A stretch of 32,000 nucleotides of DNA from Zymomonas mobilis subsp. mobilis ATCC 10988 (lineage in GTDB: Bacteria > Pseudomonadota > Alphaproteobacteria > Sphingomonadales > Sphingomonadaceae): contig NC_017262.1 in assembly GCF_000175255.2 (NCBI RefSeq), positions 1,080,001 to 1,112,000 on the forward strand, given 5' to 3'. Shown piece after piece: positions 4,947-22,209 of the stretch. Under the pieces are notes generated by a model. The model was not told where the DNA came from, made no database searches, and was given only the letters and a program-made list of their open reading frames with translations. The number at the start of each line of letters is the position of its first letter. Position 1 is the first letter of the stretch. The position numbers and the translations under genes are program-made.

Positions 4947-5021
4947 TGGTGGGCGCGGCTGGGATTGAACCAGCGGCCACTGCGATGTGAACACAGTGCT
5001 CTACCACTGAGCTACGCGCCC
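4947..5021 (-). tRNA. tRNA-Val (anticodon CAC)
   Basis: The reverse complement GGGCGCGTAGCTCAGTGGTAGAGCACTGTGTTCACATCGCAGTGGCCGCTGGTTCAATCCCAGCCGCGCCCACCA folds by hand into a cloverleaf. It has a 7 bp acceptor, a GCTC/GAGC D stem, a CTGTG/CGCAG anticodon stem with loop TTCACAT, a GCTGG/CCAGC T stem with TTCAATC loop, and an encoded CCA. Confidence 0.9.
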
Positions 5022-8474: not shown

Positions 8475-8981
8475 ATGACTGCTTCTTCTACTTTTAAAAT
8501 TGAATATATCATACAGGCGCGCAACCTTGCCAAATTAGGGGCAACCAATCGCGATATTGCCGATTTTTTTGGTGTGAGCGAACGCACGATCAATCGTTGG
8601 GTTTTAAAATATCCCGATTTTGCCAATGCTGTCAGAATTGGGAAAGCGGCGGCGGACAATCGGGTTGAGGCTTCGCTCTATCAAAGAGCCGTAGGCTATA
8701 GTTACGATTGCCAAAAAGTGCTGATGGTTTCCGGTAAGCCTGAAGTCGTGGAATTTGTCGAGCATCTTCCGCCCGATATTACAGCCTGTAGTTTTTGGTT
8801 ACGGAACCGCCGTCCTAAACAATGGCGGGAAAAACAAACGGCAGAAATAACCGGCCAGAATGGTGCGCCTATTTTGGCGCGTATAGAACGCGTCATTGTC
8901 GGCGAAGGGCATAGCGGATCTGATCGGCCTATATCCTCTTCGGAATGGGATAACGATCCTGTTGATATGGGAAAGATGTGA
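8475..8981 (+). CDS. Terminase small subunit
   Basis: The 168 aa ORF has an N-terminal HTH (GATNRDIADFFGVSERTINRWVLKYPDF) and a conserved ASLYQRAVGY...WLRNRRPKQWR block typical of phage TerS. It sits immediately upstream of, and overlaps, the large terminase gene. Confidence 0.8.
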   Translation: MTASSTFKIEYIIQARNLAKLGATNRDIADFFGVSERTINRWVLKYPDFANAVRIGKAAADNRVEASLYQRAVGYSYDCQKVLMVSGKPEVVEFVEHLPPDITACSFWLRNRRPKQWREKQTAEITGQNGAPILARIERVIVGEGHSGSDRPISSSEWDNDPVDMGKM

Positions 8982-10267
8982 TGTCTTTTCCGGCTTTAAG
9001 AATTCCGACCGCCAAAGTCTTTAGACCTTTATTAAAACCGGCACGCTATAAAGGCGCTTATGGTGGAAGAGGTTCCGGTAAATCCCATTTTTTCGCGGAA
9101 ATGTTGGTTGAAGATTGTCTTCGCCTTCCGGGATTGCGGGCTGTCTGTATTCGAGAAGTCCAAAAATCCCTGAAGGATTCAGCGAAAAGGCTGATCGAGG
9201 CGAAATTATCGGCATATCATTTGGGAAGCAATGTCGGTTTTCGGGTTTTTCGTGACCACATCCAAACCCCCGGCAATGGCATTATCATCTTTCAAGGGAT
9301 GCAAGACCATACCGCCGAAAGTATCAAGTCTTTGGAAGGATTCTCACGGGCATGGGTCGAAGAAGCGCAGACCCTGTCCCAACGATCTTTGGAGCTTTTA
9401 AGGCCAACCATCAGAACGATTGATTCAGAATTATGGTTTTCGTGGAATCCTCGTTTCAAAACTGATCCGGTTGACCGGATGTTGCGCGGCGAAACGCCAC
9501 CGACCGGTGCTGTTGTGGTTCAGGCTAATTGGGAAAATAACCCGTGGTTCCCCTCGCCGTTGGATCAGGAAAGGCGGGATTGCCTGGCGAATGATCCTGA
9601 TAAATACCGCCATATATGGGAAGGGGGATATGCGGAGATAACCGAGGGGGCTTATTATGCCCAAGCCTTGGCCAAAGCCCGATCTGAAAAACGGATAGCT
9701 GTCGTTGCCGCTGACCCGTTAATGACCTTGCGGGCGGTTTGGGATATCGGCGGCACGGGTGCCAAAGCCGATGCTACCGCGATATGGATTGTCCAATATG
9801 TCGGACGGGAAATCCGTTTCCTCGATCATTATGAAGCGCAAGGGCAGCCTTTATCTGCCCATCTTCATTGGTTGCGTTCGCATGATTATGGCGGGGCTTT
9901 ATGTATCCTACCTCATGATGGCGCGCAGCATGATAAAATCGCCTCGACAACCTATGAAGGCGCGTTGCGTGAAGCCGGATTTTCGGTGCGGGTTATTCCT
10001 AATCAGGGAGCCGGAGCCGCAATGCAGCGGATTGAAGCAGCTCGTCGGTTATTTCCCCAGATGTGGTTTGATGAAAATCACTGCCGTGGCGGTTTGGAAG
10101 CCCTTGGATGGTATCACGAAAAACGGGACGAAATACGAGGGATAGGGTTAGGACCCGATCATGATTGGTCAAGCCATTCCGCGGATGCTTTCGGTTTGGC
10201 GGCTATTGCTTGGGAACCGCCCGTAACGAGCCGGAAAATCACCTATAGCAATAAAGGAATATTTTAA
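8978..10267 (+). CDS. Terminase large subunit
   Basis: The 429 aa ORF has Walker A YGGRGSGKSHFFA, a WVEEAQ Walker B-like motif, and a C-terminal nuclease region (WDIGGTGAKADATAIW). The start is GTG 8978 or ATG 8981, overlapping the terS stop. Confidence 0.9.
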   Translation: MMSFPALRIPTAKVFRPLLKPARYKGAYGGRGSGKSHFFAEMLVEDCLRLPGLRAVCIREVQKSLKDSAKRLIEAKLSAYHLGSNVGFRVFRDHIQTPGNGIIIFQGMQDHTAESIKSLEGFSRAWVEEAQTLSQRSLELLRPTIRTIDSELWFSWNPRFKTDPVDRMLRGETPPTGAVVVQANWENNPWFPSPLDQERRDCLANDPDKYRHIWEGGYAEITEGAYYAQALAKARSEKRIAVVAADPLMTLRAVWDIGGTGAKADATAIWIVQYVGREIRFLDHYEAQGQPLSAHLHWLRSHDYGGALCILPHDGAQHDKIASTTYEGALREAGFSVRVIPNQGAGAAMQRIEAARRLFPQMWFDENHCRGGLEALGWYHEKRDEIRGIGLGPDHDWSSHSADAFGLAAIAWEPPVTSRKITYSNKGIF

Positions 10268-10309
10268 TGAAACGGGCTGAAAAGAGCTTTCTGCCCCGAA
10301 GGGGGCGCT

Positions 10310-12499
10310 ATGTCTTTGGATATTGATAGCAATATAGATTTGAAAGAAAAACAGGCGGATTTCTTACTTTCTAACCATGAGTTATTAGCGGTCTTGCGCG
10401 AAAAAGCCGATCAAGCAGAAAGCTGGCATAATAGTTTACTGGCTGAAGATCAGGCCAATGCTATCGATTTTTATGAAGCGCGACCCTTTGGGGATGAAGA
10501 GGACGGTCGGAGTCAGGTCGTTAGTCCCGATGTCGCCGAGGTAGTCGATTATATGACGATCAGCCTGTTACGGACGATTGTGTCAGGCGATCGCGTGATT
10601 GAATTCGAGCCGATAGCCGCCGAGCAAGCGCAAGATGCCGACGATGCGACCGAGGCGGTCAGCTATGCTTTTATGCATGGACAGGACGGCTATAAAATCT
10701 TGCATGACTGGATACAGTCGGGATTGATTGAAAAAATAGGCATTATCAAAACCGCGGTCCTATCGGAAAGACGTGCTACAATCCGTCATATTACTGTCGA
10801 TGATGATGCCTTGGCAGCTCTGTTGATGGAGGCCGAGGATAATCCCGATATTCAGATTACCTTGAATAGTGACAATGGTAGCGGCCAATATGAGGTAACC
10901 GTTACCCGTTATCAGCTTCAAAAACGCTATGTCGATATGCCGATTCCGTCCGAAGAATATCGCGTTTCGGCCAGAACCCGCCATGAAGATGATGCTGATT
11001 ATCAGGCGCATGTCAGTTATAAAACGCTGTCTGATCTTATTTCGATGGGGTTCGATCGCGATATTGTTGAGAGCCTACCAAGTGATAAGAGTTTTCCCAA
11101 TAGCGATGGCCGTTCTGATGCCAGATGGCGGGATGAATCCTTTCTGTCTGGCAGCAGCGATCAAGCCAATCGCGAAGTTCTCTTATATGAAGAATATGTC
11201 CGCATCGATCGGGATGGCGACGGCATTGCTGAATTATTGCAGATTTTTCGGGTAAAAGATGTCTTACTTTCGATTGAAGAAGTAGACGAAGCGCCCTTTG
11301 TCGTTTGGACACCTTTCCCGCGCGCCCATCGGATGATTGGTAATTCTTTGGCCGAGAAGGTTATGGATATCCAGCGGGTTAAGTCAGTGCTGATGCGTCA
11401 GGCTTTGGATGGGGTTTACCAGACCAATGCGCCCCGTATGGCGGTAAATGTCGATGGTTTAACCGAAGATACTTTTGACGATTTATTGACAATTAGACCC
11501 GGGGCGATTGTCCGTTATCGGGGTGGCATTCCACCAACGCCGTTAAATGCCGGTTTCGATATCCAAAAATCTTTGGGTATGATCGAGTATATGCAGTCGG
11601 CTCAGGAAAGCCGGACGGGGATTACCCGTCTTAATCAGGGATTGGATGCTGACAGTCTTAATAAAACCGCGACTGGTCAGGCCTTGCTTCAGGCGCAAGG
11701 GCAGCAAATGGAAGAATATGTTGCCCGCAATTTTGCACAAAGTCTTGGGCGGTTATTCCAAAAGAAATTATGGCTGATGATTGCATCGGGCGATCCGATG
11801 GCGATCAAGGTTGAAGGTCTGTATAAAACGGTTGATCCGGCTTTGTGGCCGCCGGATATGCGCGTGCGTGTCACGGTCGGATTGGGATCGGGGCGAAAAG
11901 ATCAGCGTTTGGCCTATCGTCAGCAGTTGTTATCTATTCAGCAACAGGCGTTGGCCGTTGGTTTAACCGGTTCCAAGCAGATTTATAATAATATCGCCGC
12001 GATGATCCGAGATTGTGGTTTGGGTAATCCGACTGATTATTTGATTGATCCTGATATTCGCTTGGCAGGTAATCAGGCTGAAAATCCTGTGAATAATAAT
12101 TCGGCTGCAGCGCAAAATTCTTCTGGCAGTGTAGGAAATAATCCCGATTATACAGAGTTGAAAGCCCGACAAGATATCAATCTTCAAGGGCAGAAAATGG
12201 CTGCTGATCAGGAACGGAGTATGGCCGAATTTGCTTTGAAAAAGCAGGAAACCGAGGCCAAGCTGGCGATGCAACAGGAAGAGCATAAACAGCGTTTGGC
12301 CTTGGTGCGCGAAAAAGCCGAAGAAGAGGCCATTTTAGCAAGGCAACGTTCCGATTTTGAAGCCTCGCTTGCCAAGGAAACGGCCGATCGTAATTACCAG
12401 ATCGCTTTGAAATTGGCAGAAGCTGGAAAAAATATTCCAGCGGATAAAAAGGGGGATAGGGTGCCGCAAAACAAAGCAGGGGGCGCATTGGATAAATAA
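10310..12499 (+). CDS. Portal protein (large P22-type size class, with a C-terminal coiled-coil extension)
   Basis: The 729 aa ORF follows terL and has a strong RBS (AAGGGGG). Assignment rests on size and position. The C-terminal ~130 aa are charged and helical (AEFALKKQETEAKLAMQQEEHKQRLALVREKAEEEA). Confidence 0.8.
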   Translation: MSLDIDSNIDLKEKQADFLLSNHELLAVLREKADQAESWHNSLLAEDQANAIDFYEARPFGDEEDGRSQVVSPDVAEVVDYMTISLLRTIVSGDRVIEFEPIAAEQAQDADDATEAVSYAFMHGQDGYKILHDWIQSGLIEKIGIIKTAVLSERRATIRHITVDDDALAALLMEAEDNPDIQITLNSDNGSGQYEVTVTRYQLQKRYVDMPIPSEEYRVSARTRHEDDADYQAHVSYKTLSDLISMGFDRDIVESLPSDKSFPNSDGRSDARWRDESFLSGSSDQANREVLLYEEYVRIDRDGDGIAELLQIFRVKDVLLSIEEVDEAPFVVWTPFPRAHRMIGNSLAEKVMDIQRVKSVLMRQALDGVYQTNAPRMAVNVDGLTEDTFDDLLTIRPGAIVRYRGGIPPTPLNAGFDIQKSLGMIEYMQSAQESRTGITRLNQGLDADSLNKTATGQALLQAQGQQMEEYVARNFAQSLGRLFQKKLWLMIASGDPMAIKVEGLYKTVDPALWPPDMRVRVTVGLGSGRKDQRLAYRQQLLSIQQQALAVGLTGSKQIYNNIAAMIRDCGLGNPTDYLIDPDIRLAGNQAENPVNNNSAAAQNSSGSVGNNPDYTELKARQDINLQGQKMAADQERSMAEFALKKQETEAKLAMQQEEHKQRLALVREKAEEEAILARQRSDFEASLAKETADRNYQIALKLAEAGKNIPADKKGDRVPQNKAGGALDK

Positions 12500-12798
12500 T
12501 GGAGCAAGATCCCATTTTGCGGGCAAGGCGTTGGAAAGCCTTTTATGAAGAAAAGGGCGGGTTGAAAGCTATTTTGCAAGAAATCGGCACCCGTTATATC
12601 CAGCGTATGTCCGAGATTGCCCCATGGGAAGCCGAAGCTGACCGAAAATTATTACGTTTGGCGATGGCTAATCGAATTGTGGGGCAAATTGATAACTTGA
12701 TTCAAGTGATTATTGCAGATGGGCAATTGGCTGATCAGGCCAAAGAACATGCCCGAAAAATAGAGAATTTACCCGAGCGAAAACGTCGCTGGCTGTAG
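12499..12798 (+). CDS. Hypothetical phage protein
   Basis: The 99 aa ORF has a start overlapping the portal stop (TAATG). No motif was recognised. Confidence 0.5.
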   Translation: MEQDPILRARRWKAFYEEKGGLKAILQEIGTRYIQRMSEIAPWEAEADRKLLRLAMANRIVGQIDNLIQVIIADGQLADQAKEHARKIENLPERKRRWL

Positions 12799-12914
12799 GC
12801 CGAGCTATCAAGGTCTTCATTCTATTTATTGAGAAAAAACCGGCTGGGTGGCTGGAAAGAGAGTCACCGGAGTGATCTTCTGCGCCCATTTTACCGGTTG
12901 GACATTCAGGAATA

Positions 12915-13772
12915 TTGATAATGACAAATATAAAAGGCGCAGCCTTGAGGCGACCTCGTCGGTCTATTCAGGAAGCTGCCGAAGCATTGCAAGCCAATTT
13001 GGCACCGGATCAGGATGATCCGATGGCTGGAAATAATGCGGATATGCCGCCATCCGATCAGGCATCCGAGGATCAGAGCAACATGGGCGCAACGGCAGCA
13101 GGAAATGGTGCCAATCAAGGAAATGGTCAGCCAGACATGAGTGCGGCTTGGCAAGAACATTGTCGAGCCTTGCATTACCATTATGCCGACCAGCTTGCTA
13201 AATATGCCGAAGCGATTACCCCGAAAAAACCTGATCCGCAGTTATTGGTCAGTGATCCGGCAAGCTATGCCGCACAATTGGCAAGTTATGAAGACTTAAC
13301 GGCCAAGCGTGACCAAATTGTTCAGGAAGTTATCCAGATTTCTCGCCAGAATGAAATGGCTGAACTGGCTGCCAGAAGAGCATGGGCGCAGGGCGAACAT
13401 CAGCGTTTGATATCGCTTTTGCCTGAATGGGGCGATGATAATCAGAGACCGGCTATCTTGGCGGCTTTTGAAGAAACGGGACGGCATCTCGGTTATCCAG
13501 ATCATGTTTTGGCCGAGGCTGATTCCAACGACATTATGGCTTTGAAAAAAGCCCATGAATGGCGAAGAAAATCCGAAAAATGGGATGCCCTACAACAGGG
13601 TAAGGCGGCGGCTATCAAATCAGCCAAAACATCGAGAAAAACCGCAGTTCCAGGAACGTCCCAGCCTTATGGCGCGGCCAAAAGCCGGAAACTGAATGAA
13701 TCATTGGGGCAGCTTCGCGAAACTGGTGATGTCCGGTCAGCCGCCGCGGCGATGAACGCCCTTTTTAAATAA
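12915..13772 (+). CDS. Putative scaffolding protein
   Basis: The ORF lies between the portal and major capsid genes. It is acidic, Ala/Gln-rich, helical and low-complexity. The likely start is ATG 12921, preceded by AGGA. Confidence 0.55.
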   Translation: MIMTNIKGAALRRPRRSIQEAAEALQANLAPDQDDPMAGNNADMPPSDQASEDQSNMGATAAGNGANQGNGQPDMSAAWQEHCRALHYHYADQLAKYAEAITPKKPDPQLLVSDPASYAAQLASYEDLTAKRDQIVQEVIQISRQNEMAELAARRAWAQGEHQRLISLLPEWGDDNQRPAILAAFEETGRHLGYPDHVLAEADSNDIMALKKAHEWRRKSEKWDALQQGKAAAIKSAKTSRKTAVPGTSQPYGAAKSRKLNESLGQLRETGDVRSAAAAMNALFK

Positions 13773-13797
13773 TCTACTTTTCAAGGAATTTTGAATT

Positions 13798-13887
13798 ATG
13801 TCTGTTGCCTCTAATACCGTCCAAACCTATTCGCGTGTCGGTATTCGTGAAGATCTTTCCGATATTATTTATAATATCAGCCCGACT
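13798..13887 (+). CDS. Major capsid protein, exon 1 (30 codons)
   Basis: The ATG at 13798 is preceded by AAGGAA. It encodes MSVASNTVQTYSRVGIREDLSDIIYNISPT, the conserved N-terminus of an HK97-fold capsid family. Unspliced, the frame reaches a stop 6 codons later (TAA 13903-13905). Confidence 0.75.
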
Positions 13888-14264
13888 GGAGTCTTGGTCC
13901 GTTAATGTAGTTTATACGCTGCATTAAATGAAAAGGCGGTGAATTCGGGGGACGTCCAACCGTCATAGACGAGGATAATCCCGAGCCAAGCTTGAGGTGA
14001 AAATCTCTTGAAGGTGTAACGACTAACAGCCGAGCCTACCGACAAAAAACGATAAAACTGATGCCGTTATTTCTGAAAAAGAAGCGGGTATGATTCTTTT
14101 CATTTTTACTGAAAATGCCGGAAATTTCGGAAGAAATATTTCAGTCTTTTTTGTCCATGGCAGTAATGCTGACACGAGTGCCGCCCGCGAAAGCGATGAT
14201 ATAGTCTGAGCCTTGCAGGAATGTAAGGAAGCAAGGGATAAAGAGCCTTTGCGGTAACAATCTG
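13888..14264 (+). ncRNA. Putative self-splicing group I intron (ORF-less, 377 nt) interrupting the major capsid gene
   Basis: Exon 1 ends in U, which can form a U.G pair in P1 (GACU 13884-87 / GGUC 13896-99). The intron ends in G (14264). A P2 hairpin lies at 13902-10/13919-27. Strings resembling the conserved core elements are P AAUUCGGGGG (13942-51), Q AAUCCCGAGCC (13977-87), R GUAACGACUAACAG (14016-29) and S GAUAUAGUC (14198-206). P4 (UUCGGG/CCCGAG) and P7 (GACUA/UAGUC) can pair. A P9 hairpin lies at 14211-16/14231-36. Excision restores the reading frame. Confidence 0.75.
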
Positions 14265-15152
14265 GAAACACCTTTTGTAACAGCTATCGGTCAAACGACA
14301 GCCAAAAATACCTATACCGAATGGCAGACCGACAATCTTGCCAGCGCTAATGCCCAGAATAAACAGGTCGAAGGGGCTGATCTTGCCAATGAAAGCCGTC
14401 AGCCAACGGTCCGGGTCGGCAATTATACCCAGATCATGACCAAAGTTGTCGGGACATCGACGACCGATCGGGCGGTGCATAATGCCGGACGCGGTGATGA
14501 ACATGCCTATCAGTTGGCACGTGCTGGTCAGGAATTGAAACGCGATATTGAGGCGCGCTTTACCGGTAATTTTGCAGCCATTCCCGGAGATGGGGCAGTC
14601 GTCGCGCGTGAAACAGCAGGAGCTTTGGCATGGCTGCGCAGTAATGCCCATCGTGGCGACGGCGGTGCTAATCCGGTGATGTCCGGTGGCGATAATGGCA
14701 GCGGTTATCCGACAACCGCGGCGACCGCAGGTAAGGCGCGGCTTTATACCGAGGCTTTGTTAAAAGAAGTTTTGGGCGATATCTGGGTCAGTGGTGGTCA
14801 GCCAAATATGGTGATTACCTCTTTGAAACTGAAACAGACGGCAGCAGCCTTTCCGGGGTTGGCTTCCAACCGGCGCGATACGGGCGACCAGAAAGCGCGT
14901 ATTATTGCCGGTGCGGATATCTATGTTTCCGATGTCGGCGAAGTCCAGTTTGTACCTGATCGTTTTTGCGACAATAGCAGCGCTTTGGTCATTGACCCTG
15001 AATATTGGTCGGTTGCGACCTTAGATCCGATTCAGAAACGGTCTTTGGCAACAACGGGGCTGGCTGATCGTGATGCCCTTTATACTGAAATTGCCTTGCG
15101 CTGCCATAATGAAGCAACCTCCGGTGTTTTGGCAGATTTAAGCGCTGCCTGA
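14265..15152 (+). CDS. Major capsid protein, exon 2 (295 codons plus stop)
   Basis: The frame of ORF 14436..15152 stays open upstream to 14205. From 14265 it encodes ETPFVTAIGQTTAKNTYTEWQTDNLASANAQNKQVEGADL...GNYTQIMTKVVGTSTTDRAV...AYQLARAGQELKRDIE, which is typical of this capsid family. Joined to exon 1 it gives 325 aa. Confidence 0.8.
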   Translation, partial: ETPFVTAIGQTTAKNTYTEWQTDNLASANAQNKQVEGADLANESRQPTVRVGNYTQIMTKVVGTSTTDRAVHNAGRGDEHAYQLARAGQELKRDIEARFTGNFAAIPGDGAVVARETAGALAWLRSNAHRGDGGANPVMSGGDNGSGYPTTAATAGKARLYTEALLKEVLGDIWVSGGQPNMVITSLKLKQTAAAFPGLASNRRDTGDQKARIIAGADIYVSDVGEVQFVPDRFCDNSSALVIDPEYWSVATLDPIQKRSLATTGLADRDALYTEIALRCHNEATSGVLADLSAA

Positions 15153-15287
15153 TTTTCGTGATCGGGAGGATGTCTTCTTGCAAGGCATCTTCCCGTAAAA
15201 ATTCGGAAAGGGAATATTCCATGGCTTTTTCTTCTGCCTTGGTCGCCTTTTTCAAAAAAAAGGTCGGGCTGGGCTTGAAATGCGGCT

Positions 15288-15632
15288 TTGATATTCGAGG
15301 CCATGATGGCTGCTGAACGTTTGTTATCCTATAATCCGGTGACGGGGCTTAAAAGTTGGTTCTCCTCTTCAGAGGAGAATCAGGGCAGTTGGCATATCCG
15401 CTATGAACAGGATTGTTCTGCGGCTTTGGAAGCCAATAAACAGGCACAAAATGAAGATTTTGATCGGCGTTCTTCGATGTGGCACGCCGCCCATGTTCCC
15501 GCCGTCGTTTTGATGGAATGGCTGGTGAAATATGGTGTCCGATATTGGGACAAAAATCACGCGCCTGCCGTTCGCCGTTTACTCAATCATCCTGATTATC
15601 GCTATTTGCGCGTTAATCACTTTATTATGTGA
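15288..15632 (+). CDS. Hypothetical phage protein
   Basis: The ORF is 114 aa. A start at ATG 15303/15306 is more likely than 15288. It sits in the head-completion region of the cluster. Confidence 0.5.
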   Translation: MIFEAMMAAERLLSYNPVTGLKSWFSSSEENQGSWHIRYEQDCSAALEANKQAQNEDFDRRSSMWHAAHVPAVVLMEWLVKYGVRYWDKNHAPAVRRLLNHPDYRYLRVNHFIM

Positions 15633-15641
15633 GCATGGCTG

Positions 15642-16301
15642 ATGGCTCTTTTTATTGATGCCCAAAATCTGGACAGTCTCACCCGTTATGATGGCCTCTT
15701 AAAGGCGATTGCCTTGTGGTTGGAACGCGATGATCTGGCCGACGAAATCCCTTATTTCGTGCAACTGGCAGAAGCCCGTTTTCGGCGATTGTTGACTAAT
15801 CCCGAATTGGAAACCGAAATAACGGTAGCGGCAGGCTGTCCTGTTGCGTTGCCGGATGATTTTGAGGCCTTGCGCCTGCTTTATCCGGCAGGCGGTCGTC
15901 GCGATCGGGCTTTTTTGCAGCTGCCGCCAGATGTTTTTCAGCAGGGCAAGCATCAGAATAAATCTGTTTTCACCCTGATCGCAGGGCAATTATGGATATC
16001 GCCTCTTCCTGAAACAGAAACGGCTTTTTCGTTGGTCTATCGTGCGGCTTTGCCGTCTTTATCCTTGAATCGCCAGAGTAACTGGCTGTTGACGTCCCAT
16101 CCCGATATTTATTTATTCGGGTCGTTATTACAGGCCGAGTTCTTCGGATGGAATGACAGCCGTTTGCCGGTCATTAAATCGGCGCTGGATGAAGCCTTGG
16201 GCGAGTTAAATAAAGCAGGATTGCGCAAGCGTTATGCAGAAAGCACCTTGGTTGCGCCATCGCCTGTCGTGGAAGCGGTGAAAGGCACTTACCGATGGTA
16301 A
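15642..16301 (+). CDS. Hypothetical phage protein, candidate head-tail adaptor (positional call only)
   Basis: The 219 aa ORF is coupled to the downstream gene by an ATGGTAA overlap. Its position after the capsid is analogous to podovirus head-completion or adaptor proteins. Confidence 0.4.
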   Translation: MALFIDAQNLDSLTRYDGLLKAIALWLERDDLADEIPYFVQLAEARFRRLLTNPELETEITVAAGCPVALPDDFEALRLLYPAGGRRDRAFLQLPPDVFQQGKHQNKSVFTLIAGQLWISPLPETETAFSLVYRAALPSLSLNRQSNWLLTSHPDIYLFGSLLQAEFFGWNDSRLPVIKSALDEALGELNKAGLRKRYAESTLVAPSPVVEAVKGTYRW

Positions 16302-17716
16302 GTCAGCGTCTTTTATTCGGGGCTTATGAACCCGATCAACCACCGTATATGAGTGGATCACTGCGCCATTTAAGCAATGCCTATGCCACGACAAATGGAT
16401 ATCGTCCGGTCGGAGGCTTCAAGCCTTTTGCGGCGTCTTTGCCAGATGTTTTTATGGGAGCTGCGGCTTTTTTAGGGTCAGATGGTTCGACTTTATTGGT
16501 CGCTGGTACCAAAGACAGTCTTTACCGCTATGTTTCCGGTAATTGGGAGGCCTTGGTAACAGCCTTGCCGGCTTATGGACGATGGCATTTCACCCAATTT
16601 GGGGATCGCATTATTGCCGTTAACGGCAGTGCCACCCGAAAAATAGATATCCTTACTGGAAAAGCCGACAGCATAGCAGATGCCCCGACGGCTGAAATGG
16701 TGACAACTATTCGGGATTTTGTGGTGTATGGCCGCGCGTCAGCCCAGAAGAATCTAATCCAATGGTCGGGCTTTAATAACGAAAACAGCAATGTCATCGG
16801 CACCAATCAGGCCGGTTATCAACCGATGCTGACTGGTGGCGACATAATGGGCATTATGGGCGGCGAATATGGCGTTATTATCCAGCGTTCCCGCATTGTC
16901 CGTATGAGTTACACGGGGGACAGCTATATCTGGCAGTTTGATGAGATCAGCGCCAATATCGGGGCGATTGCGTCAGGCTCTATAGCGCAAGCTGGGCATC
17001 AGGTTTTCTTTCTTTCCGATCGGGGTTTTATGATGACAGACGGCGTTTCTGTCACACCGATCGGCAATGAACGGGTTGACCGGTGTTTTTTTGAAAGCTG
17101 GCCAAGGGACAGTTTGGATCAAATGACAGCGGCGATTGACCCAAGACAGCATATGGTCGCCTGGTTGATGCCCGGTAATCCTTCGATGGTTTTGATCTAT
17201 AATTGGGCAATAGACCGTTGGAGCCGTTTGGATATTGATGCCATCGGGATGTTTTCGGGATTTACCGCCAATACGACCTTGGAAGCCCTTAATACGCTTT
17301 ATCCAGATGGGTTGGATTCTATGCCCTATAGTCTGGATGATCCCCGTTTTTCTGGCGGTGACCCTTTGTTCATTTTTGTCGGAAAGTCGAATAATTTCGG
17401 GATTTTGGACGGTGAGAATTTACCCGCCTGTTTCCAAACCGGATTTTTCTCTGCCGATGGCGGTAATCACAGCCGGATACGGTCGGCAAGATTACTTGGC
17501 GATTTAATCGAAAAAGCTAGCCTAACAATCGAGGGCAGCCATCGTTTAGGTGATCCATCTTCTGGTCGGGTCGTTCGCGATATCACTTTATCAGGTCGAA
17601 TCCCGTTACGGGTCAATAACCGTTATTGTGCGCTCCGTCTGGATATTGAAGGCGGTGCCGCTTGGTCTTTTATCCAAGGCTTTGATTGGGACATTGTTGC
17701 CGGAGAAGGGCGATGA
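16295..17716 (+). CDS. Hypothetical phage structural protein, candidate tail hub or tail accessory protein (positional call only)
   Basis: The 473 aa ORF has a size and position comparable to P22 gp10-type tail accessory factors. No catalytic motif was seen. Confidence 0.4.
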   Translation: MVSQRLLFGAYEPDQPPYMSGSLRHLSNAYATTNGYRPVGGFKPFAASLPDVFMGAAAFLGSDGSTLLVAGTKDSLYRYVSGNWEALVTALPAYGRWHFTQFGDRIIAVNGSATRKIDILTGKADSIADAPTAEMVTTIRDFVVYGRASAQKNLIQWSGFNNENSNVIGTNQAGYQPMLTGGDIMGIMGGEYGVIIQRSRIVRMSYTGDSYIWQFDEISANIGAIASGSIAQAGHQVFFLSDRGFMMTDGVSVTPIGNERVDRCFFESWPRDSLDQMTAAIDPRQHMVAWLMPGNPSMVLIYNWAIDRWSRLDIDAIGMFSGFTANTTLEALNTLYPDGLDSMPYSLDDPRFSGGDPLFIFVGKSNNFGILDGENLPACFQTGFFSADGGNHSRIRSARLLGDLIEKASLTIEGSHRLGDPSSGRVVRDITLSGRIPLRVNNRYCALRLDIEGGAAWSFIQGFDWDIVAGEGR

Positions 17717-17961
17717 TGCTGCGCTTACCGATCGCCGCTACTTCTGTCGCGGATTGGATGCGGCGGGCGGCAATGGCCGTCAACAATTTGATGACGAATG
17801 TTGAACAGCAATCCAGTCAGATGGAGAGCCGTTATCATTGTCCGATACCCGCCAGTGATAACGCGCCGGATAATCCTGAAAAAGGACAGTGGTTTTTCAA
17901 TAAAACCAGCCAAAAAGCGATGATGTGGGATGGCACCCAATGGCAAAATCTGTGGGAATAA
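17713..17961 (+). CDS. Small phage protein
   Basis: An ATGA overlap with the upstream stop gives an 82 aa product. The C-terminal GQWFFNKTSQKAMMWDGTQWQNLW resembles the 'WxDGxxW' motif seen at phage fibre termini. Confidence 0.45.
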   Translation: MMLRLPIAATSVADWMRRAAMAVNNLMTNVEQQSSQMESRYHCPIPASDNAPDNPEKGQWFFNKTSQKAMMWDGTQWQNLWE

Positions 17962-18008
17962 AGAACGCAGATTATCGGTTGGCTGTTTTGAAAACGGATA
18001 AGCGAAAA

Positions 18009-18443
18009 ATGGAAATTGGTATGATTGCCCGTCCTTTGGAATGGGCAGGATGGTCTGCTGCCCGTGATTTTTTAGAACCGGCTTTGCAGCGTTCAGATGA
18101 AAGTTGGGCGGATATTTTGCCTGAACTGGAAGATGGCCAATTACAATTATGGGCGGTTCTACAGCCGGATTCAGCCCTAAAAAAACGCGATATTCTCTAT
18201 GCCGCCGCCGTGACCCGTATTGTTGCCAGTCGTGAAGGTGAAATTGCCGAAATCTATCTGGTGGGTGGTCGTGATTTCGAATTCTGGCTGTCTGATTTAT
18301 CCGAAACCATCGCCCGTTCAGCCCAAGAAATCGGCTGTATCGCGGTCAGAGCCTATGGCCGGACAGGATGGCGGCGGCCTTTGGCAAAATTAGGGTGGCG
18401 GGAAAAAACGGTAGCCTATGAAAAAGCGTTAAAGGAAAAGTGA
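18009..18443 (+). CDS. Hypothetical phage protein
   Basis: This is the 3' part of track ORF 17925..18443. Plausible starts are ATG 18009 or 18021, after the upstream gene ends at 17961. No function was recognised. Confidence 0.4.
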   Translation: MEIGMIARPLEWAGWSAARDFLEPALQRSDESWADILPELEDGQLQLWAVLQPDSALKKRDILYAAAVTRIVASREGEIAEIYLVGGRDFEFWLSDLSETIARSAQEIGCIAVRAYGRTGWRRPLAKLGWREKTVAYEKALKEK

Positions 18444-19115
18444 ATGAGCAAGAAAAGCAAGGCGACAACGGCACCGAGCCGGTTTGCCCGTCCTTATATC
18501 ACGAATAGTGCCAATGCTATCCAGCAAGCCTATAGCGATAATCAGGATAATGTAAGCAATATCAATAGTTTATTGCAGAATAACATCGGAAATGTTGCCA
18601 GTAAAACCCTGAATAACAGTGATATGGATCAGGCTGATACCTATAACCAGTCTGTCTTATCGGGAAAATATCTTTCCCCGTCATCCAATCCCGCTTTGTC
18701 TGATATTATCAAGAATACCAATCAGGATGTTTCGGATAGCGTCAATGGCGCGATTGGGACAAGAGGTCTGACGGGAGGTTCTGCCCAAGCGCAGTTATTA
18801 GCGAAAGAGTTGGGTCAGACAGACAGCAACCTTCTTTATAATAATTACAATACCGAGCGAGGCTATCAACAGCAGGCCTCTGAAAATGCTGCCAATTTGG
18901 GCGATGCGCGGAATAGTAGCATCAATACCCTTGGTAACTATCTGACAACGACAGCAGCTTTGCCGCAATCCTCCTTTTCGGTGCTGGCAAGCAATATGGC
19001 TTCGTTATTGGGCAATTATAACACCACAACCCAAAATCAGGGCATCGGGTCAACCTTGGCCAGTTTAGCTGGGGCGGGATTGTCAGGCTGGGCTTCCAGC
19101 GGTTTTAAAGTTTAG
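18444..19115 (+). CDS. N/S/Q-rich virion protein, candidate internal or ejection protein
   Basis: The 223 aa ORF starts immediately after the upstream stop (TGAATG). It has a low-complexity polar composition and a C-terminal Gly/Ala/Ser hydrophobic tail (GIGSTLASLAGAGLSGWASSGF). Confidence 0.45.
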   Translation: MSKKSKATTAPSRFARPYITNSANAIQQAYSDNQDNVSNINSLLQNNIGNVASKTLNNSDMDQADTYNQSVLSGKYLSPSSNPALSDIIKNTNQDVSDSVNGAIGTRGLTGGSAQAQLLAKELGQTDSNLLYNNYNTERGYQQQASENAANLGDARNSSINTLGNYLTTTAALPQSSFSVLASNMASLLGNYNTTTQNQGIGSTLASLAGAGLSGWASSGFKV

Positions 19116-19127
19116 GAGTCTTTTCAA

Positions 19128-19802
19128 ATGGCGATATCTTTCGGAAATAAAATCAATCAAAATGATGTATTAAATCAGGATGGTTCCGCTCTTAAAAAGG
19201 CGATTAATAGCTTTAGTGATAGCCCTGTTTTTGCATCAGAGCCGATCGAGCAAAAACCAATCAACGATATGGAACCGTCTATTACCTCTCCATCGCCTAT
19301 CAATGGTTATGGGAGTGGAGGCGAAGAAACGCCGATGCCGGAGACGGCTTCTACTACACCGCAAGCGGAGCAACACCCGTCGCCTCATTTTTTCTCGGCG
19401 GGTGGAATAGGCAAGCGGATTGCTGGTGTAATCGGTGACGCCTTATTATTGGCCAATGGCCGCTATCCGCTCTATTTACCTGCGGTAATGGAGCATAATC
19501 GTCGTATCGACCAACAAAATGCCCAGCAACAGCAACGAGATTTTAGCAATAATCTCGCTACTTCGAAATTAAATCAGCAGCAGGCAAATATGGCCGATAA
19601 AGCGGCTAAGCCACAATATCATTTCGGAGCTGATGGGCGGGTTCTGTCTCTCAACCCTATGACAGGAGAGGCGACCCAGATACGCGATCCTGATATGCCG
19701 CTGCCTAGCGAGCATGAACGGATGATTAGTCATATCGTCAATCTTCCGGCGAATGATCCGGAAAGGAAAGCCATTGAACGATTGCTTTTTAAGAATAAAT
19801 AA
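19128..19802 (+). CDS. Q-rich hypothetical virion protein
   Basis: The 224 aa ORF is preceded by AGGAG 6 nt upstream of the ATG. It has Pro/Ser-rich and poly-Q segments (QQNAQQQQRDF, NQQQANM). Confidence 0.45.
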   Translation: MAISFGNKINQNDVLNQDGSALKKAINSFSDSPVFASEPIEQKPINDMEPSITSPSPINGYGSGGEETPMPETASTTPQAEQHPSPHFFSAGGIGKRIAGVIGDALLLANGRYPLYLPAVMEHNRRIDQQNAQQQQRDFSNNLATSKLNQQQANMADKAAKPQYHFGADGRVLSLNPMTGEATQIRDPDMPLPSEHERMISHIVNLPANDPERKAIERLLFKNK

Positions 19803-19981
19803 CATCCATTTTGGATATTATTTTTAAATTAATCCTTAAAATGTTGGATTTATTATAAGAATATCACAATAGATACTTTGGGTATCGGGATTTTTTGTAA
19901 GTAAAATCCAATGTAATCGAAATGTAATCATTAAAATATTTATTTATTTTATGCTCTTATAAGGAGGGGTAGGGCTGCGCT
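19803..19981 (+). promoter_or_regulatory. AT-rich intergenic gap inside the phage cluster with tandem 11 bp direct repeats. It is a putative internal promoter or operator for the tail-fibre module
   Basis: This is the largest non-coding gap in the cluster (179 bp). It contains AATGTAATCGA/AATGTAATCAT in tandem (19910-19931), repeated TTGGAT(A/T)TTATT motifs (19811, 19845), and a strong SD (AAGGAGG) before ATG 19982. Confidence 0.45.
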
Positions 19982-20350
19982 ATGTCTTTTTCGGACTGGT
20001 CGCAAAATGCAGATAGTAACAGCAATATTGGCGGGATCAGTATTGCTGAAGGCTGTCCACCGGGCAATCTTAACAATGCCTTGCGCGAGATAATGGCTGA
20101 AATGCGGTCTGCTATCAATCAGGCTATGGATACGGCCTTGAGCTCGGCTGATATGGCGAGTTTTCGTCAGGCTATTGGGGCTTTGGCGAATAGTGGTGAC
20201 ACTATTGACGGCGTTTTGCGCCGTAAAGGTCAGGGAGTTTTCCCTTATTTTGCCGATGGTTCTTTTTCCGGTGGCCGGATTTATGTGACCAATAGTCAAG
20301 CGGCTGACCCGACAAGTCAGCCGGGGGATATCTGGTTGGTCTATGTATGA
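19982..20350 (+). CDS. Tail fibre-associated protein (conserved alphaproteobacterial phage fibre N-terminal motif)
   Basis: The 122 aa ORF begins MSFSDWSQNADSNSNIGGISIAEGCPPGNLNNALREIMAEMRSA. This matches the 'WS..A..N....GI.I.EG..P..(V/L)NN..R..MA' N-terminus I recall from alphaproteobacterial phage and prophage fibre proteins. Confidence 0.55.
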   Translation: MSFSDWSQNADSNSNIGGISIAEGCPPGNLNNALREIMAEMRSAINQAMDTALSSADMASFRQAIGALANSGDTIDGVLRRKGQGVFPYFADGSFSGGRIYVTNSQAADPTSQPGDIWLVYV

Positions 20351-20793
20351 CTATCAGCCTTAAAGATCAGGATAATTTTTCCCGCGAGATAAGAGCTGTT
20401 TCAATCAGGGGAGCCGATGGCGTGCTTCATTCTGTCGGATCTATTCGTATCCGTGGGCAGGATGAAAGCTTGCATGAGGTCTTTTGCCACAAGCTGGATG
20501 TCTCGGTTTCTGACGCTTTGATAGAAAGCTATTCCCGTCATAATCCTGTGATTTCTTCTGCGGTGACGGTTCAGGTTTCGGGCGGTGTTCCGCCTTATCA
20601 ACATCGCTGGTCTTTGGTGAGTAGCGATAGAGCCGATAGCGTGATGGCTCTTTCTCCTTTTTCGGCAACAACGACTTTTCGAGCCGATGGCGTGCCTCAT
20701 CACCATGCCGCATCAGCCTATTTGCGTGACGATGTTACCGATCAGAATGGCTTTGCCGGTTCGGTTGAAGTCCATTGTATTTTTACGAGGTAA
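20347..20793 (+). CDS. Hypothetical phage tail protein
   Basis: The 148 aa ORF has an ATGA overlap with the upstream gene. Confidence 0.45.
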   Translation: MTISLKDQDNFSREIRAVSIRGADGVLHSVGSIRIRGQDESLHEVFCHKLDVSVSDALIESYSRHNPVISSAVTVQVSGGVPPYQHRWSLVSSDRADSVMALSPFSATTTFRADGVPHHHAASAYLRDDVTDQNGFAGSVEVHCIFTR

Positions 20794-20797
20794 TTTC

Positions 20798-21199
20798 ATG
20801 CGTAAATATTTTGACAGCGTGGCGAGCGCGCTTGACGGGAAGCCGGTCATGGGTGCCTTGATTTTCGTCTATAAAACAGACGGTAGTCTGGCTTCCCTTT
20901 TTTCTGATGATGGAACGACCGCTATTTCCCAGCCTTTGCGGACGGATAGTCTCGGATATTTCGAATTTTATGTTGCGGATGGTCTTTATGATTTGACCAT
21001 TTCCTATGGCGGCAAAATTCGGACGCGTCTTTCTGGCGTTCAAATTTATGATGAATCCCATCTGCAAGGGGGCGGGGCAGCCTTGCCCGACGGCACCCGT
21101 ATTGCCGAATTGCCGGTCGCAGCCATGAACAAGGCTTTGGGTGCGGCCGGAAACTTAGCCCAATTTATCAAAAATTATTCTAATAATTCTATGGAGTGA
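20798..21199 (+). CDS. Hypothetical phage tail protein (small beta-sandwich-like)
   Basis: The ATG at 20798 is preceded by GAGG 7 nt upstream. The track ORF start at 20687 would overlap the previous gene. The product is 133 aa and includes GALIFVYKTDGSLASLFSDDG...GYFEFYVADGLYDL. Confidence 0.5.
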   Translation: MRKYFDSVASALDGKPVMGALIFVYKTDGSLASLFSDDGTTAISQPLRTDSLGYFEFYVADGLYDLTISYGGKIRTRLSGVQIYDESHLQGGGAALPDGTRIAELPVAAMNKALGAAGNLAQFIKNYSNNSME

Positions 21200-21203
21200 T
21201 GCC

Positions 21204-22205
21204 ATGTCTACTTTAACGATTTCGGAAATGACCGATGCAGGATCGGTTACCGAAGATGATTTGATTGAAATTTCCCGTCCGGTTGCCAATGGTTATGCAA
21301 CCTATAAAGCCAAAATCGGCTATATTAAAAATCTGACGACCAATTATGATTCCGTCATTGCCGCTTTGGGGCATGAACCGGTGAGCGTTGATTTAAGCAA
21401 TTTTAACGCCGCAACCTTCCAGCAGAAAGTAGCGATTTCTTACGGCCAGATTACCAAAGGCCTCGGCTATGAGCCGATGAATGTCGATTTCAGTAATTTC
21501 AACGGATCCACTTTCCAGCAGAAAGTGACGCTGTCCTATGGCCAGATTACCGGTGGTCTGGGATATGAACCGGCCAATAAAGACTTGTCTAATATTGATG
21601 GCATGGGTCTGGTCTCAAAAATCAATGCTGTCCGAGGTGCTGCACCGGTTTTGACGACCGGGGGTGAACTGACTGGTAATCTCAATCCGGCTTCAGATGG
21701 TGTGATTACCTTGGGACAGCCTAACCGTAAATGGGCTGAAATCTATGCTTCGAATGGGGCAATTAACACCTCGGATGCCCGTCAGAAGATGGATATTGCT
21801 TCTGTCCCTGATGAGGTTCTGGATGTCTGGGGCAATCTGTCATGGCGGCAGTTTAAATTCAGAAAAGCGGTTGAGACCAAAGGCTTTGATAAGGCGCGCT
21901 GGCATTTCGGTCTGATCGCTCAAGAAGTCGAAGATGCCTATAAAAATGCGGGCTTGGATGCCGAAAGTCTGGGCATGATTTGTCATGACCATTGGGAAGC
22001 CCATACTCGCCGTGAAAAAACCGGTAATATGGGTAAAAATGGCAAGCCGGTCTATCGCGATGTCTTGGTGCCAGCCGGTGAAGCCTATGGTTTGCGCTAT
22101 AGCGAATGTCAGGCGATCGAAGCCGCATGGCAGCGGCGTGAAATTATTCGGCAGCAGGCTGAAATTGACGCTTTGAAAGCGCAGCTCACCCAAGCACAGG
22201 CTTAA
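21204..22205 (+). CDS. Tail fibre protein with a C-terminal intramolecular chaperone (peptidase S74) domain
   Basis: The 333 aa ORF contains LGQPNRKWAEIYASNGAINTSDARQKMDI...WRQFKF...RWHFGLIAQEV, the S74 auto-cleaving chaperone signature (SDxRxK, Ser at 21771-73). It also has an internal 32 aa tandem repeat and a C-terminal coiled coil. Confidence 0.8.
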   Translation: MSTLTISEMTDAGSVTEDDLIEISRPVANGYATYKAKIGYIKNLTTNYDSVIAALGHEPVSVDLSNFNAATFQQKVAISYGQITKGLGYEPMNVDFSNFNGSTFQQKVTLSYGQITGGLGYEPANKDLSNIDGMGLVSKINAVRGAAPVLTTGGELTGNLNPASDGVITLGQPNRKWAEIYASNGAINTSDARQKMDIASVPDEVLDVWGNLSWRQFKFRKAVETKGFDKARWHFGLIAQEVEDAYKNAGLDAESLGMICHDHWEAHTRREKTGNMGKNGKPVYRDVLVPAGEAYGLRYSECQAIEAAWQRREIIRQQAEIDALKAQLTQAQA

Positions 22206-22209
22206 GATA

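Follow-up and report, generated by a model that had tools for sequence, protein, structure and literature searches.

A capsid gene of Zymomonas mobilis probably split by a self-splicing intron of group I, a member of a capsid-site homing-intron family

Why does the major capsid gene of a phage-like gene cluster in Zymomonas mobilis run into a stop after 35 codons, and why does the rest of the same protein resume only 377 nucleotides (nt) past its thirtieth codon? The gene lies in a stretch of 32,000 nt of Z. mobilis subsp. mobilis ATCC 10988 (contig NC_017262.1, positions 1,080,001 to 1,112,000), here called the window. Coordinates are those of the window, and the features given for the gene and its insert all lie on the forward strand. 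We hold with considerable, if not complete, confidence that the gene is split by a self-splicing intron of group I, and that this intron is a short derivative, lacking an open reading frame (ORF), of a family of homing introns that occupy a capsid site.

The split capsid gene and its intron boundaries

Exon 1 (13798-13887) is preceded by a Shine-Dalgarno-like AAGGA (13783-13787), which on direct reading of the sequence lies 10 nt upstream of the capsid ATG. It comprises 30 capsid codons, encoding MSVASNTVQTYSRVGIREDLSDIIYNISPT, and its last base is U13887. Translation of unspliced RNA would then run into GVLVR and end at an in-frame TAA (13903-13905), five codons into the insert. Exon 2 (14265-15152) opens with ETPFVTAIGQ and consists of 295 codons and a stop (15150-15152). 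Excision of 13888-14264 (377 nt) joins the exons in frame in a 978-nt ORF that encodes 325 amino acids (aa). This product matches the Pfam family SU10_MCP (PF17236) in one stretch (residues 7-322 against profile positions 5-291/292, E 1.6e-88), and also PHROG 1328, 'major head protein'. When the protein is aligned to 13 homologues that have no interruption (57-69% identity), the segment across the junction, NISPT|ETPFVTAI, is gap-free in 13/13 and almost invariant. An earlier sequence-only reading of the window had placed the split at exactly these positions, with ISPT and ETPF rejoined in frame in a 325-aa protein, and had proposed an alignment with intron-less homologues as a check. The single PF17236 match and the contiguity of the two motifs in every one of the 13 homologues bear this out. 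The amino acids of exon 1 are, moreover, 100% identical in Z. mobilis AN0101 (locus L215) and Zymomonas sp. W26 (L223). The predicted spliced junction reads ATAATATCAGCCCGACT|GAAACACCTTTTGTAACAGC (...CCGACU|GAAACA...) and would be spanned by the tryptic peptide EDLSDIIYNISPTETPFVTAIGQTTAK; in intron-less capsid genes the target site reads ...ATCAGCCCGACTGAAACACC....

Misannotation of the gene by automated pipelines had also been anticipated, and public genomes do list a 35-aa ORF and a 304-aa 'DUF5309' protein at this locus. The 35-aa gene is exon 1 with read-through into the intron, and the 304-aa annotation (P0001, MKSLCGNNLETPF...) begins at an ATA (14238-14240) that lies inside the intron helix P9.1. 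Both gene calls are artefacts of the unrecognised intron. Recognition of the intron restores the complete 325-aa capsid protein of an industrially important organism, every examined genome of which lists a broken gene. A perfect 14-bp hairpin follows at 15163-15195, 11 nt past the capsid stop (-24.5 kcal/mol, z -3.7, no U-tract), and may be an mRNA-stabilising or attenuating stem-loop behind the capsid gene.

We identified the insert (13888-14264) as a group I intron from a match to the Rfam model Intron_gpI (RF00028) and from covariation across a family of related introns. The Infernal search with this model, which the sequence-only reading had named as a check, was run with an E-value threshold in place of the gathering threshold. 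It gave a match at 13899-14228 that takes in all 253 model positions. The E-value is 3e-10 in the local search and 1.5e-8 when the window as a whole is scanned, but the score of 45.1 bits is under the cut-off of 50. Four homologous copies pass that threshold, namely both Zymomonas relatives (L223, 50.9 bits; L215, 50.1 bits) and two further members of the family (L172, 51.6 bits; L157, 51.4 bits).

The intron obeys the group I boundary rules, as had been supposed. At each of the 26 loci with defined boundaries, a U closes the 5' exon and a G (the omega-G, here G14264) closes the intron. Positions 13888 and 14265 are both G, and boundaries shifted by +1 would yield an identical mRNA; the canonical boundaries (exon end U13887, intron end G14264) are those kept throughout the family. 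Stops occur in all three frames of the intron and the longest open segment is 60 codons, in agreement with the earlier statement that it holds no homing-endonuclease ORF. At all 26 loci an in-frame stop follows the 5' splice site by 0-8 codons. By analogy with what is reported for T4 td, such an early stop would keep ribosomes off the folding core.

Fold and subgroup

The structure was scored on an alignment of 20 distinct family members from which both variable loops had been removed and one member (L123) omitted, its P1/P2 and P8 regions being too divergent. The scored elements were P1, P2, P3, P4, P5/P5a, P6/P6a, the P7 pseudoknot, the P7.1 arm, P8, P9 and P9.1. Across the 20 sequences, 92.3% of cells are paired, a share that drops to 36-45% once the 3' strands are displaced by 1-3 columns. 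Two-sided (compensatory) changes mark 37 of the 76 pairs, and 6-13 after such displacement. In 500 shuffles the observed pairing and covariation values were never reached. RNAalifold, given no prior structure, recovered every helix except the pseudoknotted P7, and in the window copy every helix is intact.

P1 (13884-13899) pairs the exon sequence GACU (13884-87) with the guide GGUC (13896-99) and places a U13887-G13896 wobble at the 5' splice site. The wobble is kept in 20/20 sequences, and the helix's middle pairs change in step with the exon codon (AU 11, CG 4, UA 2, GC 1) in exon/guide combinations that include ACU/GGU, UCU/GGA, GUU/GAC and CCU/GGG. It is followed by the P2 hairpin (13902-13927; 13902-10/13919-27), with 9 bp, 4/9 of them covarying, and a loop of 8 nt. 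The 5' strand of P3, GGCGGUG (13935-13941), pairs with UGCCGCC at 14179-14185 (98.6% paired, 3/7 pairs compensatory), a partner supported by the Rfam match, by covariation and by RNAalifold. The P4, P5 and P5a domain (13944-13985) consists of P4 (13944-50/13979-85), P5 (13954-57/13973-76) and P5a (13961-64/13968-71); P4 is invariant and the inner P5/P5a pairs covary. P6 and P6a (13986-14014) follow directly (P6 13986-87/14013-14; P6a 13991-98/14003-10 with a GAAA tetraloop), and 7/8 P6a pairs covary. The 5' strand of P7, GACUA (14021-14025), pairs with UAGUC (14202-14206) in a pseudoknot with P3 and is invariant in 20/20. P8 is the hairpin CGC-GAAA-GCG (14186-14195; 2/3 pairs covary). It leads into J8/7 and the 3' strand of P7 (AUGAUAUAGUC, 14196-14206), a segment that is invariant in the family and matches the Rfam consensus. 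Two further hairpins complete the fold, namely P9 (14211-14228; 14211-17/14222-28, GGAA loop, 99.3% paired, 6/7 pairs covarying) and P9.1 (14231-14252; 14231-37/14246-52, 5/7 pairs covarying).

Much of the fold drawn in the sequence-only reading survives this analysis: P1 with its wobble, the 9-bp P2, the P4 pairing (recovered by RNAalifold), P7 (whose strands correspond to R and S in the Rfam consensus) and the CGC-GAAA-GCG hairpin, which is P8. Two of its elements do not. The P9 that it proposed (14211-16/14231-36) pairs in 47% of the family's cells, less than the mean of the shuffles, and the region forms the two hairpins P9 and P9.1. It had also placed a large insertion (~150 nt) in the P8 region. 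Covariation puts the P3 3' strand (14179-14185) after the insertion, which is therefore an arm between P7 and P3'.

This P7.1 arm (14026-14172) has base stems (14027-30/14168-71 and 14034-36/14159-61) that are conserved across the family. It is present in 20/20 aligned members as one conserved, covarying, branched arm at the position of P7.1/P7.2 in subgroup IA introns. Its presence between P7 and P3' in all 20 speaks against the earlier suggestion that the intron is closest to IC-type introns. In the Michel-Westhof classification, IC3 introns have a compact core without P7.1/P7.2. The IC3 introns of Azoarcus tRNA-Ile and cyanobacterial tRNA-Leu lack an arm between P7 and P3' and interrupt tRNA anticodon loops, whereas the intron described here has the P7.1 arm and interrupts a protein-coding phage gene. 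The P4, P6 and J6-7 strings (GCCGAGCCAAGC..., GAAGGUGUA.AGACUA) may resemble those of IC3 introns. The subgroup IA (IA2/IA3-type) introns of T4 td/nrdB/nrdD, SPO1, Twort and Bastillevirinae share the arm between P7 and P3' and the phage context, although here there is one branched arm and not separate P7.1 and P7.2. The predicted architecture is IA-like and not IC, as judged from the arrangement of helices.

A hairpin across the 3' splice site was also considered. It is formed by the last 6 intron nt and the first 8 nt of exon 2 (e.g., GGGGUG|GAUACCCC and GGAGUG|GAAACUCC) and occurs, with covariation, in about half of the relatives (among them L135, L140, L191, L198, L204, L238 and L123). We rejected it as a shared feature, given that it is 44% paired family-wide and absent from the Zymomonas copies.

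We predict that splicing follows the standard group I pathway. The capsid pre-mRNA would fold into the P1-P9.1 ribozyme, and free guanosine would attack the phosphate after U13887, held in the P1 helix GACU/GGUC. The 3'-OH of exon 1 would then attack after G14264, joining ...CCGACU to GAAACA... in an mRNA for the 325-aa capsid protein. Ribosomes on unspliced RNA would halt at the TAA five codons into the intron.

An HNH-encoding intron family at one capsid site

Relatives were sought with a two-block pattern of core strings, an earlier single pattern (GAAGGTGTANNGACTA) having proved too loose and returned mostly chance matches. The two conserved core strings occur in about 100 viral contigs and 24 genome contigs. 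Searches with nhmmer and tblastn gave about 29 loci in which capsid matches flank an intron match near codon 30/31, and boundaries could be set at 26 loci including the window, with the intron at capsid codon 29/30-31. The interrupted SU10-type capsids share only 30-58% identity with the Zymomonas protein. The loci include, besides those of the two other Zymomonas (L215 and L223), metagenome-assembled genomes of Sphingomonadales, Pseudomonadales and Peribacteria, along with viral contigs.

Fourteen relatives, 860-980 nt long, carry an intact ORF of 242-295 aa that encodes an HNH domain (Pfam PF01844) and FCS-type zinc fingers. In full-length relatives the start of this ORF and the HNH domain lie inside the P2 loop. 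The ORF then reads through P3-P7 as ...NAVNSG...NPEPS...EGVTT.GRAYRRW, and the P7.1 loop supplies the coding sequence of a CxxC...C zinc ribbon. Several members have a longer ORF that goes on across P3', P8 and P7' and ends with ...SAPRESDDIV* at a UGA just past UAGUC. This overlap of ORF and ribozyme (L157, reverse strand, intron nt 24-863; also L238, L198, L154, L140 and L235) makes about 840 of about 920 intron nt dual coding. An ORF that spans from the P2 loop to past the 3' strand of P7 goes beyond the loop-encoded layout usual in IA phage introns. In four relatives (L135, L140, L154 and L198) a GGAGG-type ribosome-binding site before the HNH start codon lies, as judged by eye, within short inverted repeats (e.g., CATCGCCTC...GAGGTGATG), which suggests that a hairpin masks the site and limits translation of the endonuclease.

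The family also includes shorter derivatives of 530, 529, 476, 412, 380, 377 and 276 nt, and there are near-identical pairs of short and full-length sister introns (L231 with L157, L172 with L126). Because it has no endonuclease ORF, while HNH ORFs are intact in 14 relatives, the window intron is a non-autonomous derivative. The Zymomonas P2 loop is 8 nt in the window copy and different in each Zymomonas lineage. In Zymomonas the P2-loop part of the endonuclease is deleted, and the P7.1 loop is an AT-rich arm, non-coding and apparently structured.

The distal part of that arm (119 nt, 33% GC) is specific to Zymomonas and occupies the position where relatives encode the zinc-ribbon C-terminus of the HNH endonuclease. 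It is predicted to fold as a long branched hairpin. Four compensatory pairs were found among the three Zymomonas copies, against 0-1 in slid controls, though 48 of 500 shuffles equal this count and the structure was derived from those same three sequences. Compensatory maintenance of the distal stems is on these figures suggestive only. Comparison of the distal arm with the relatives' zinc-ribbon segment gave no match in nhmmer and a mean z of 0.1 in a permutation test, where the relatives among themselves reach 3.7-7. A MAFFT alignment of the Zymomonas insertion with the relatives' zinc-ribbon coding segment was accordingly discarded as a statement of homology, there being no similarity detectable by either method. 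Similarity in tblastn between HNH ORF and intron (NPEPS..EGVTT, NADTSA.RESDDIV) was likewise set aside as a sign of ORF ancestry, as it covers RNA-constrained segments only, in three different frames.

The insertion sites fall into two classes that lie 3 nt from each other. In class A, to which the window belongs, the site is ..CCG ACU|intron|GAAAC (ISPT|ETPF) and the guide is GGUC. In class B (L040, L047, L099, L123, L146 and L235) it is ..GCG CCU|intron|xxxGAAAC (ITP|EETPF) with the guide GGGC; the P1 sequences indicate that the helix is re-adapted to the shifted exon sequence. In other viral contigs, SU10-type capsid genes are also split elsewhere by segments with the same group I core string (L006 at 2646-2909, L048, L084 and L066, after codon ~252; L146 at ~codon 248; L191 at ~codon 110), and some genes hold two. 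This capsid family seems to be an intron hotspot.

With the intron and its compact relative (L172) as blastn queries, no full-length relative was found in a collection of 50,697 cultured-phage records, and the 40 best capsid homologues among cultured phages are single uninterrupted pieces. A blastn search of the intron against plasmids gave nothing, and the one against phages gave partial matches only, of ~70-90 nt. The compact relative gave partial core matches only, to phages of Aeromonas and of Listeria. The 3' part of the intron (P7'-P9.1, query 302-373) has its best blastn matches in introns of S. thermophilus, Bacillus and Lactobacillus JCL1032 phages, over ~70 nt.

Protein-coding group I introns are rare in alphaproteobacterial chromosomes. 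A close analogue of the evolutionary pattern is an intron in the lysin gene of S. thermophilus phages, for which Foley et al. (2000, a study cited in PMC3952083 and PMC5601072) reportedly described an HNH-type ORF and shorter ORF-less derivatives at the same site; host gene (lysin) and phylum differ from those here. Group I introns have been documented in the capsid genes of mycobacteriophage LittleE and lactococcal phage Tuc2009 (PMC3706429). These resemble the Zymomonas intron in that they interrupt a major capsid gene that is highly expressed, in a temperate phage or prophage, have an exon-end U and an intron-end G, and were likewise recognised against uninterrupted homologues. They differ in that the capsid here is of the SU10/PF17236 podovirus type, in an alphaproteobacterial host, and there is no detectable sequence relationship. 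The LittleE intron has a LAGLIDADG-like ORF on the opposite strand, whereas the Zymomonas-type family has a same-strand HNH ORF over the core and the window copy has none. Phage introns with HNH ORFs, overlap of ORFs with conserved ribozyme elements, and weak detection by covariance models have been described (PMC11878797). The 'hidden HNH' element of phage ShiLan (PMC11855218) was dismissed as an analogue, as it is not a group I intron.

The novelty lies in the host, the target site and the intron family itself, an apparently undescribed set of homing introns that encode HNH endonucleases and occupy one invariant site of SU10-type capsid genes in very divergent podoviruses. With both ORF-bearing and graded ORF-less members, it is a useful natural system for the study of dual RNA/protein coding and intron decay. 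Nothing that we found alters knowledge of how group I introns work.

Selection, the host cluster and rival explanations

The window contains, in order, two levansucrase genes, a tRNA, Lon, a HhH-GPD gene, a 16.4-kb block (8475-24864) and a GGDEF/EAL gene. The block encodes the small and large terminase subunits (terS, terL), an SU10-type portal, a scaffold, the capsid, an adaptor and virion and tail proteins, among them a tail fibre that bears an S74 chaperone domain and a tail protein of 884 aa. Host genes flank the block, and no genes for an integrase, replication or lysis were recognised in it. A divergent Zymomonas lineage keeps the head half in synteny, with its genes under purifying selection (dS 0.8-1.5; dN/dS, the ratio of nonsynonymous to synonymous divergence, 0.014-0.14). 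The sequence-only reading had called the cluster possibly domesticated, a reasonable view that these selection data strengthen, and the block, known here from its genes alone, may be a domesticated particle-forming cluster resembling a gene transfer agent (GTA). The 'ancient Sphingomonadales prophage' (PMC5381585) was rejected as a match, being unrelated and reported absent from Z. mobilis. A literature search turned up no report of either a group I intron native to Zymomonas or a GTA in this genus.

Selection bears directly on whether the intron is removed. The spliced capsid gene has dS 0.78 and dN/dS 0.014 in comparison with L215, and dS 0.35 and dN/dS 0.026 in comparison with L223. The genes terS, terL, portal, scaffold, two small ORFs and adaptor are intact in L215 (dS 0.8-1.5, dN/dS 0.03-0.14). 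Across the same Zymomonas lineages the intron core is 2.7-7.4% diverged, and its substitutions are all pair-preserving or in unpaired positions, one of them, C148-G273 to U-A, being compensated in full. Across 503 nt of exon 1 and intron (13798-14300), another six genomes of Z. mobilis, CP003715 among them, show 0-1 differences, and 53-66 per 3.9 kb overall. Constraint of this strength is incompatible with a pseudogene and implies that the intron is removed; we infer from this sequence comparison that splicing is very probably functional. Transcripts of the cluster have been reported from strain ZM4, where ZMO0379 (terminase large subunit), ZMO0395 and ZMO0397 are listed (PMC8237431, Table 2) and a 'putative phage major head protein' is mentioned (PMC10273749); expression varies with temperature and stress (PMC8237431, PMC10273749). 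The cluster is structural-only, expressed and under strong purifying selection, and it may make particles, in which case the supply of capsid depends on a ribozyme.

Divergence is not even along the locus. In an 8-kb comparison with L215, the segment 13800-14400 has the lowest nucleotide divergence, centred on the intron. Synonymous divergence of the capsid gene is 0.18 in codons 1-45 (6 of ~33 synonymous sites), 0.29 in codons 1-75 and 0.53 beyond codon 75 (p = 0.003 for codons 1-75 against the rest). This dip fits co-conversion of the flanking exon sequence as the intron homed or was exchanged between lineages; constraint that acts on the exons close to the splice sites could also produce it.

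Several observations weigh against a self-splicing intron of this descent. The window copy scores ~5 bits below the Rfam gathering threshold of 50, and a default scan of the whole window at that threshold returned two tRNAs only and missed the intron. P4, P6 and P7 are invariant and provide no covariation evidence. P10 is weak, with 63.6% pairing family-wide and 4/5 pairs with a C-A mismatch in the window copy. Finally, descent of the P7.1 arm from the endonuclease ORF is suggested by position and length only.

The most far-reaching alternative, which we regard as unlikely, is that a domesticated ribozyme operates in a GTA-like podoviral cluster, its 120-140-nt P7.1 domain kept by compensatory evolution and its splicing controlling capsid output. 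That the P7.1 domain was retained, or evolved from former coding space, after loss of the endonuclease is, as part of the same proposal, just as unlikely.

We consider it quite unlikely that the intron is a dead relic that no longer splices, leaving a capsid pseudogene in a decaying phage cluster. Such a relic would suit an intron with no endonuclease ORF left, a sub-threshold Rfam score and P2 and P7.1 loops that gather indels, within a cluster that has no integrase, replication or recognisable lysis genes. It would not suit exons that both have dN/dS 0.014-0.026 at dS 0.35-0.78, unlike a disrupted gene, among neighbouring head genes that are all intact and cluster genes that are transcribed (PMC8237431), nor a ribozyme core that is far more conserved than synonymous sites, with pair-preserving changes and every helix intact.

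A regulated ribozyme, allosteric or condition-dependent, that gates capsid production with the P7.1 arm as a sensor or protein-binding domain is very unlikely. The structural-only, syntenic cluster under purifying selection in divergent Zymomonas lineages and its expression responsive to temperature and stress (PMC8237431, PMC10273749) would be in keeping with it, as would the arm itself, which has diverged by 15.8% against a proportion of synonymous differences (pS) of 0.49 and keeps its stems through four compensatory changes. The case from the arm, however, comes from three sequences and a structure derived from them, with 48 of 500 shuffles equal, and its low divergence is equally explicable by recent intron exchange. 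The 276-nt relative (L172) has no arm, so the fold does not require one. Neither in nor beside the intron did Rfam scans, which covered 13750-14400 and the window, find a riboswitch, such as that of c-di-GMP-II/group I tandems, or any other known RNA family, although a novel aptamer could escape them. The earlier remark that a ribozyme controlling capsid production is unusual was overstated: phage capsid introns are documented (PMC3706429), and nothing here indicates regulation beyond obligatory splicing.

It is scarcely credible that the insert is some other element (a group II intron, an insertion sequence or miniature inverted-repeat transposable element, or a translational bypass or recoding site). 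A group II domain-5-like match at 13993-14010 is very weak (14 bits, E 4.9), no better than chance, and lies on the P6a hairpin. The group I model is matched over its full length and covariation backs the fold, the boundaries have no terminal inverted repeats or target duplication, and occupation of the same site in capsids 30-58% identical, with P1 covarying with the exon, is a group I signature.

Apart from the group I intron, sensitive scanning with Rfam, both of 13750-14400 and of the window as a whole, found no other non-tRNA RNA family of significance. A weak match to 'Plastid-ycf2 5'UTR' (4949-5021, 35.5 bits, cut-off 65.7) lies on the strand opposite a bona fide tRNA and is almost certainly a mirror-image artefact of that tRNA.

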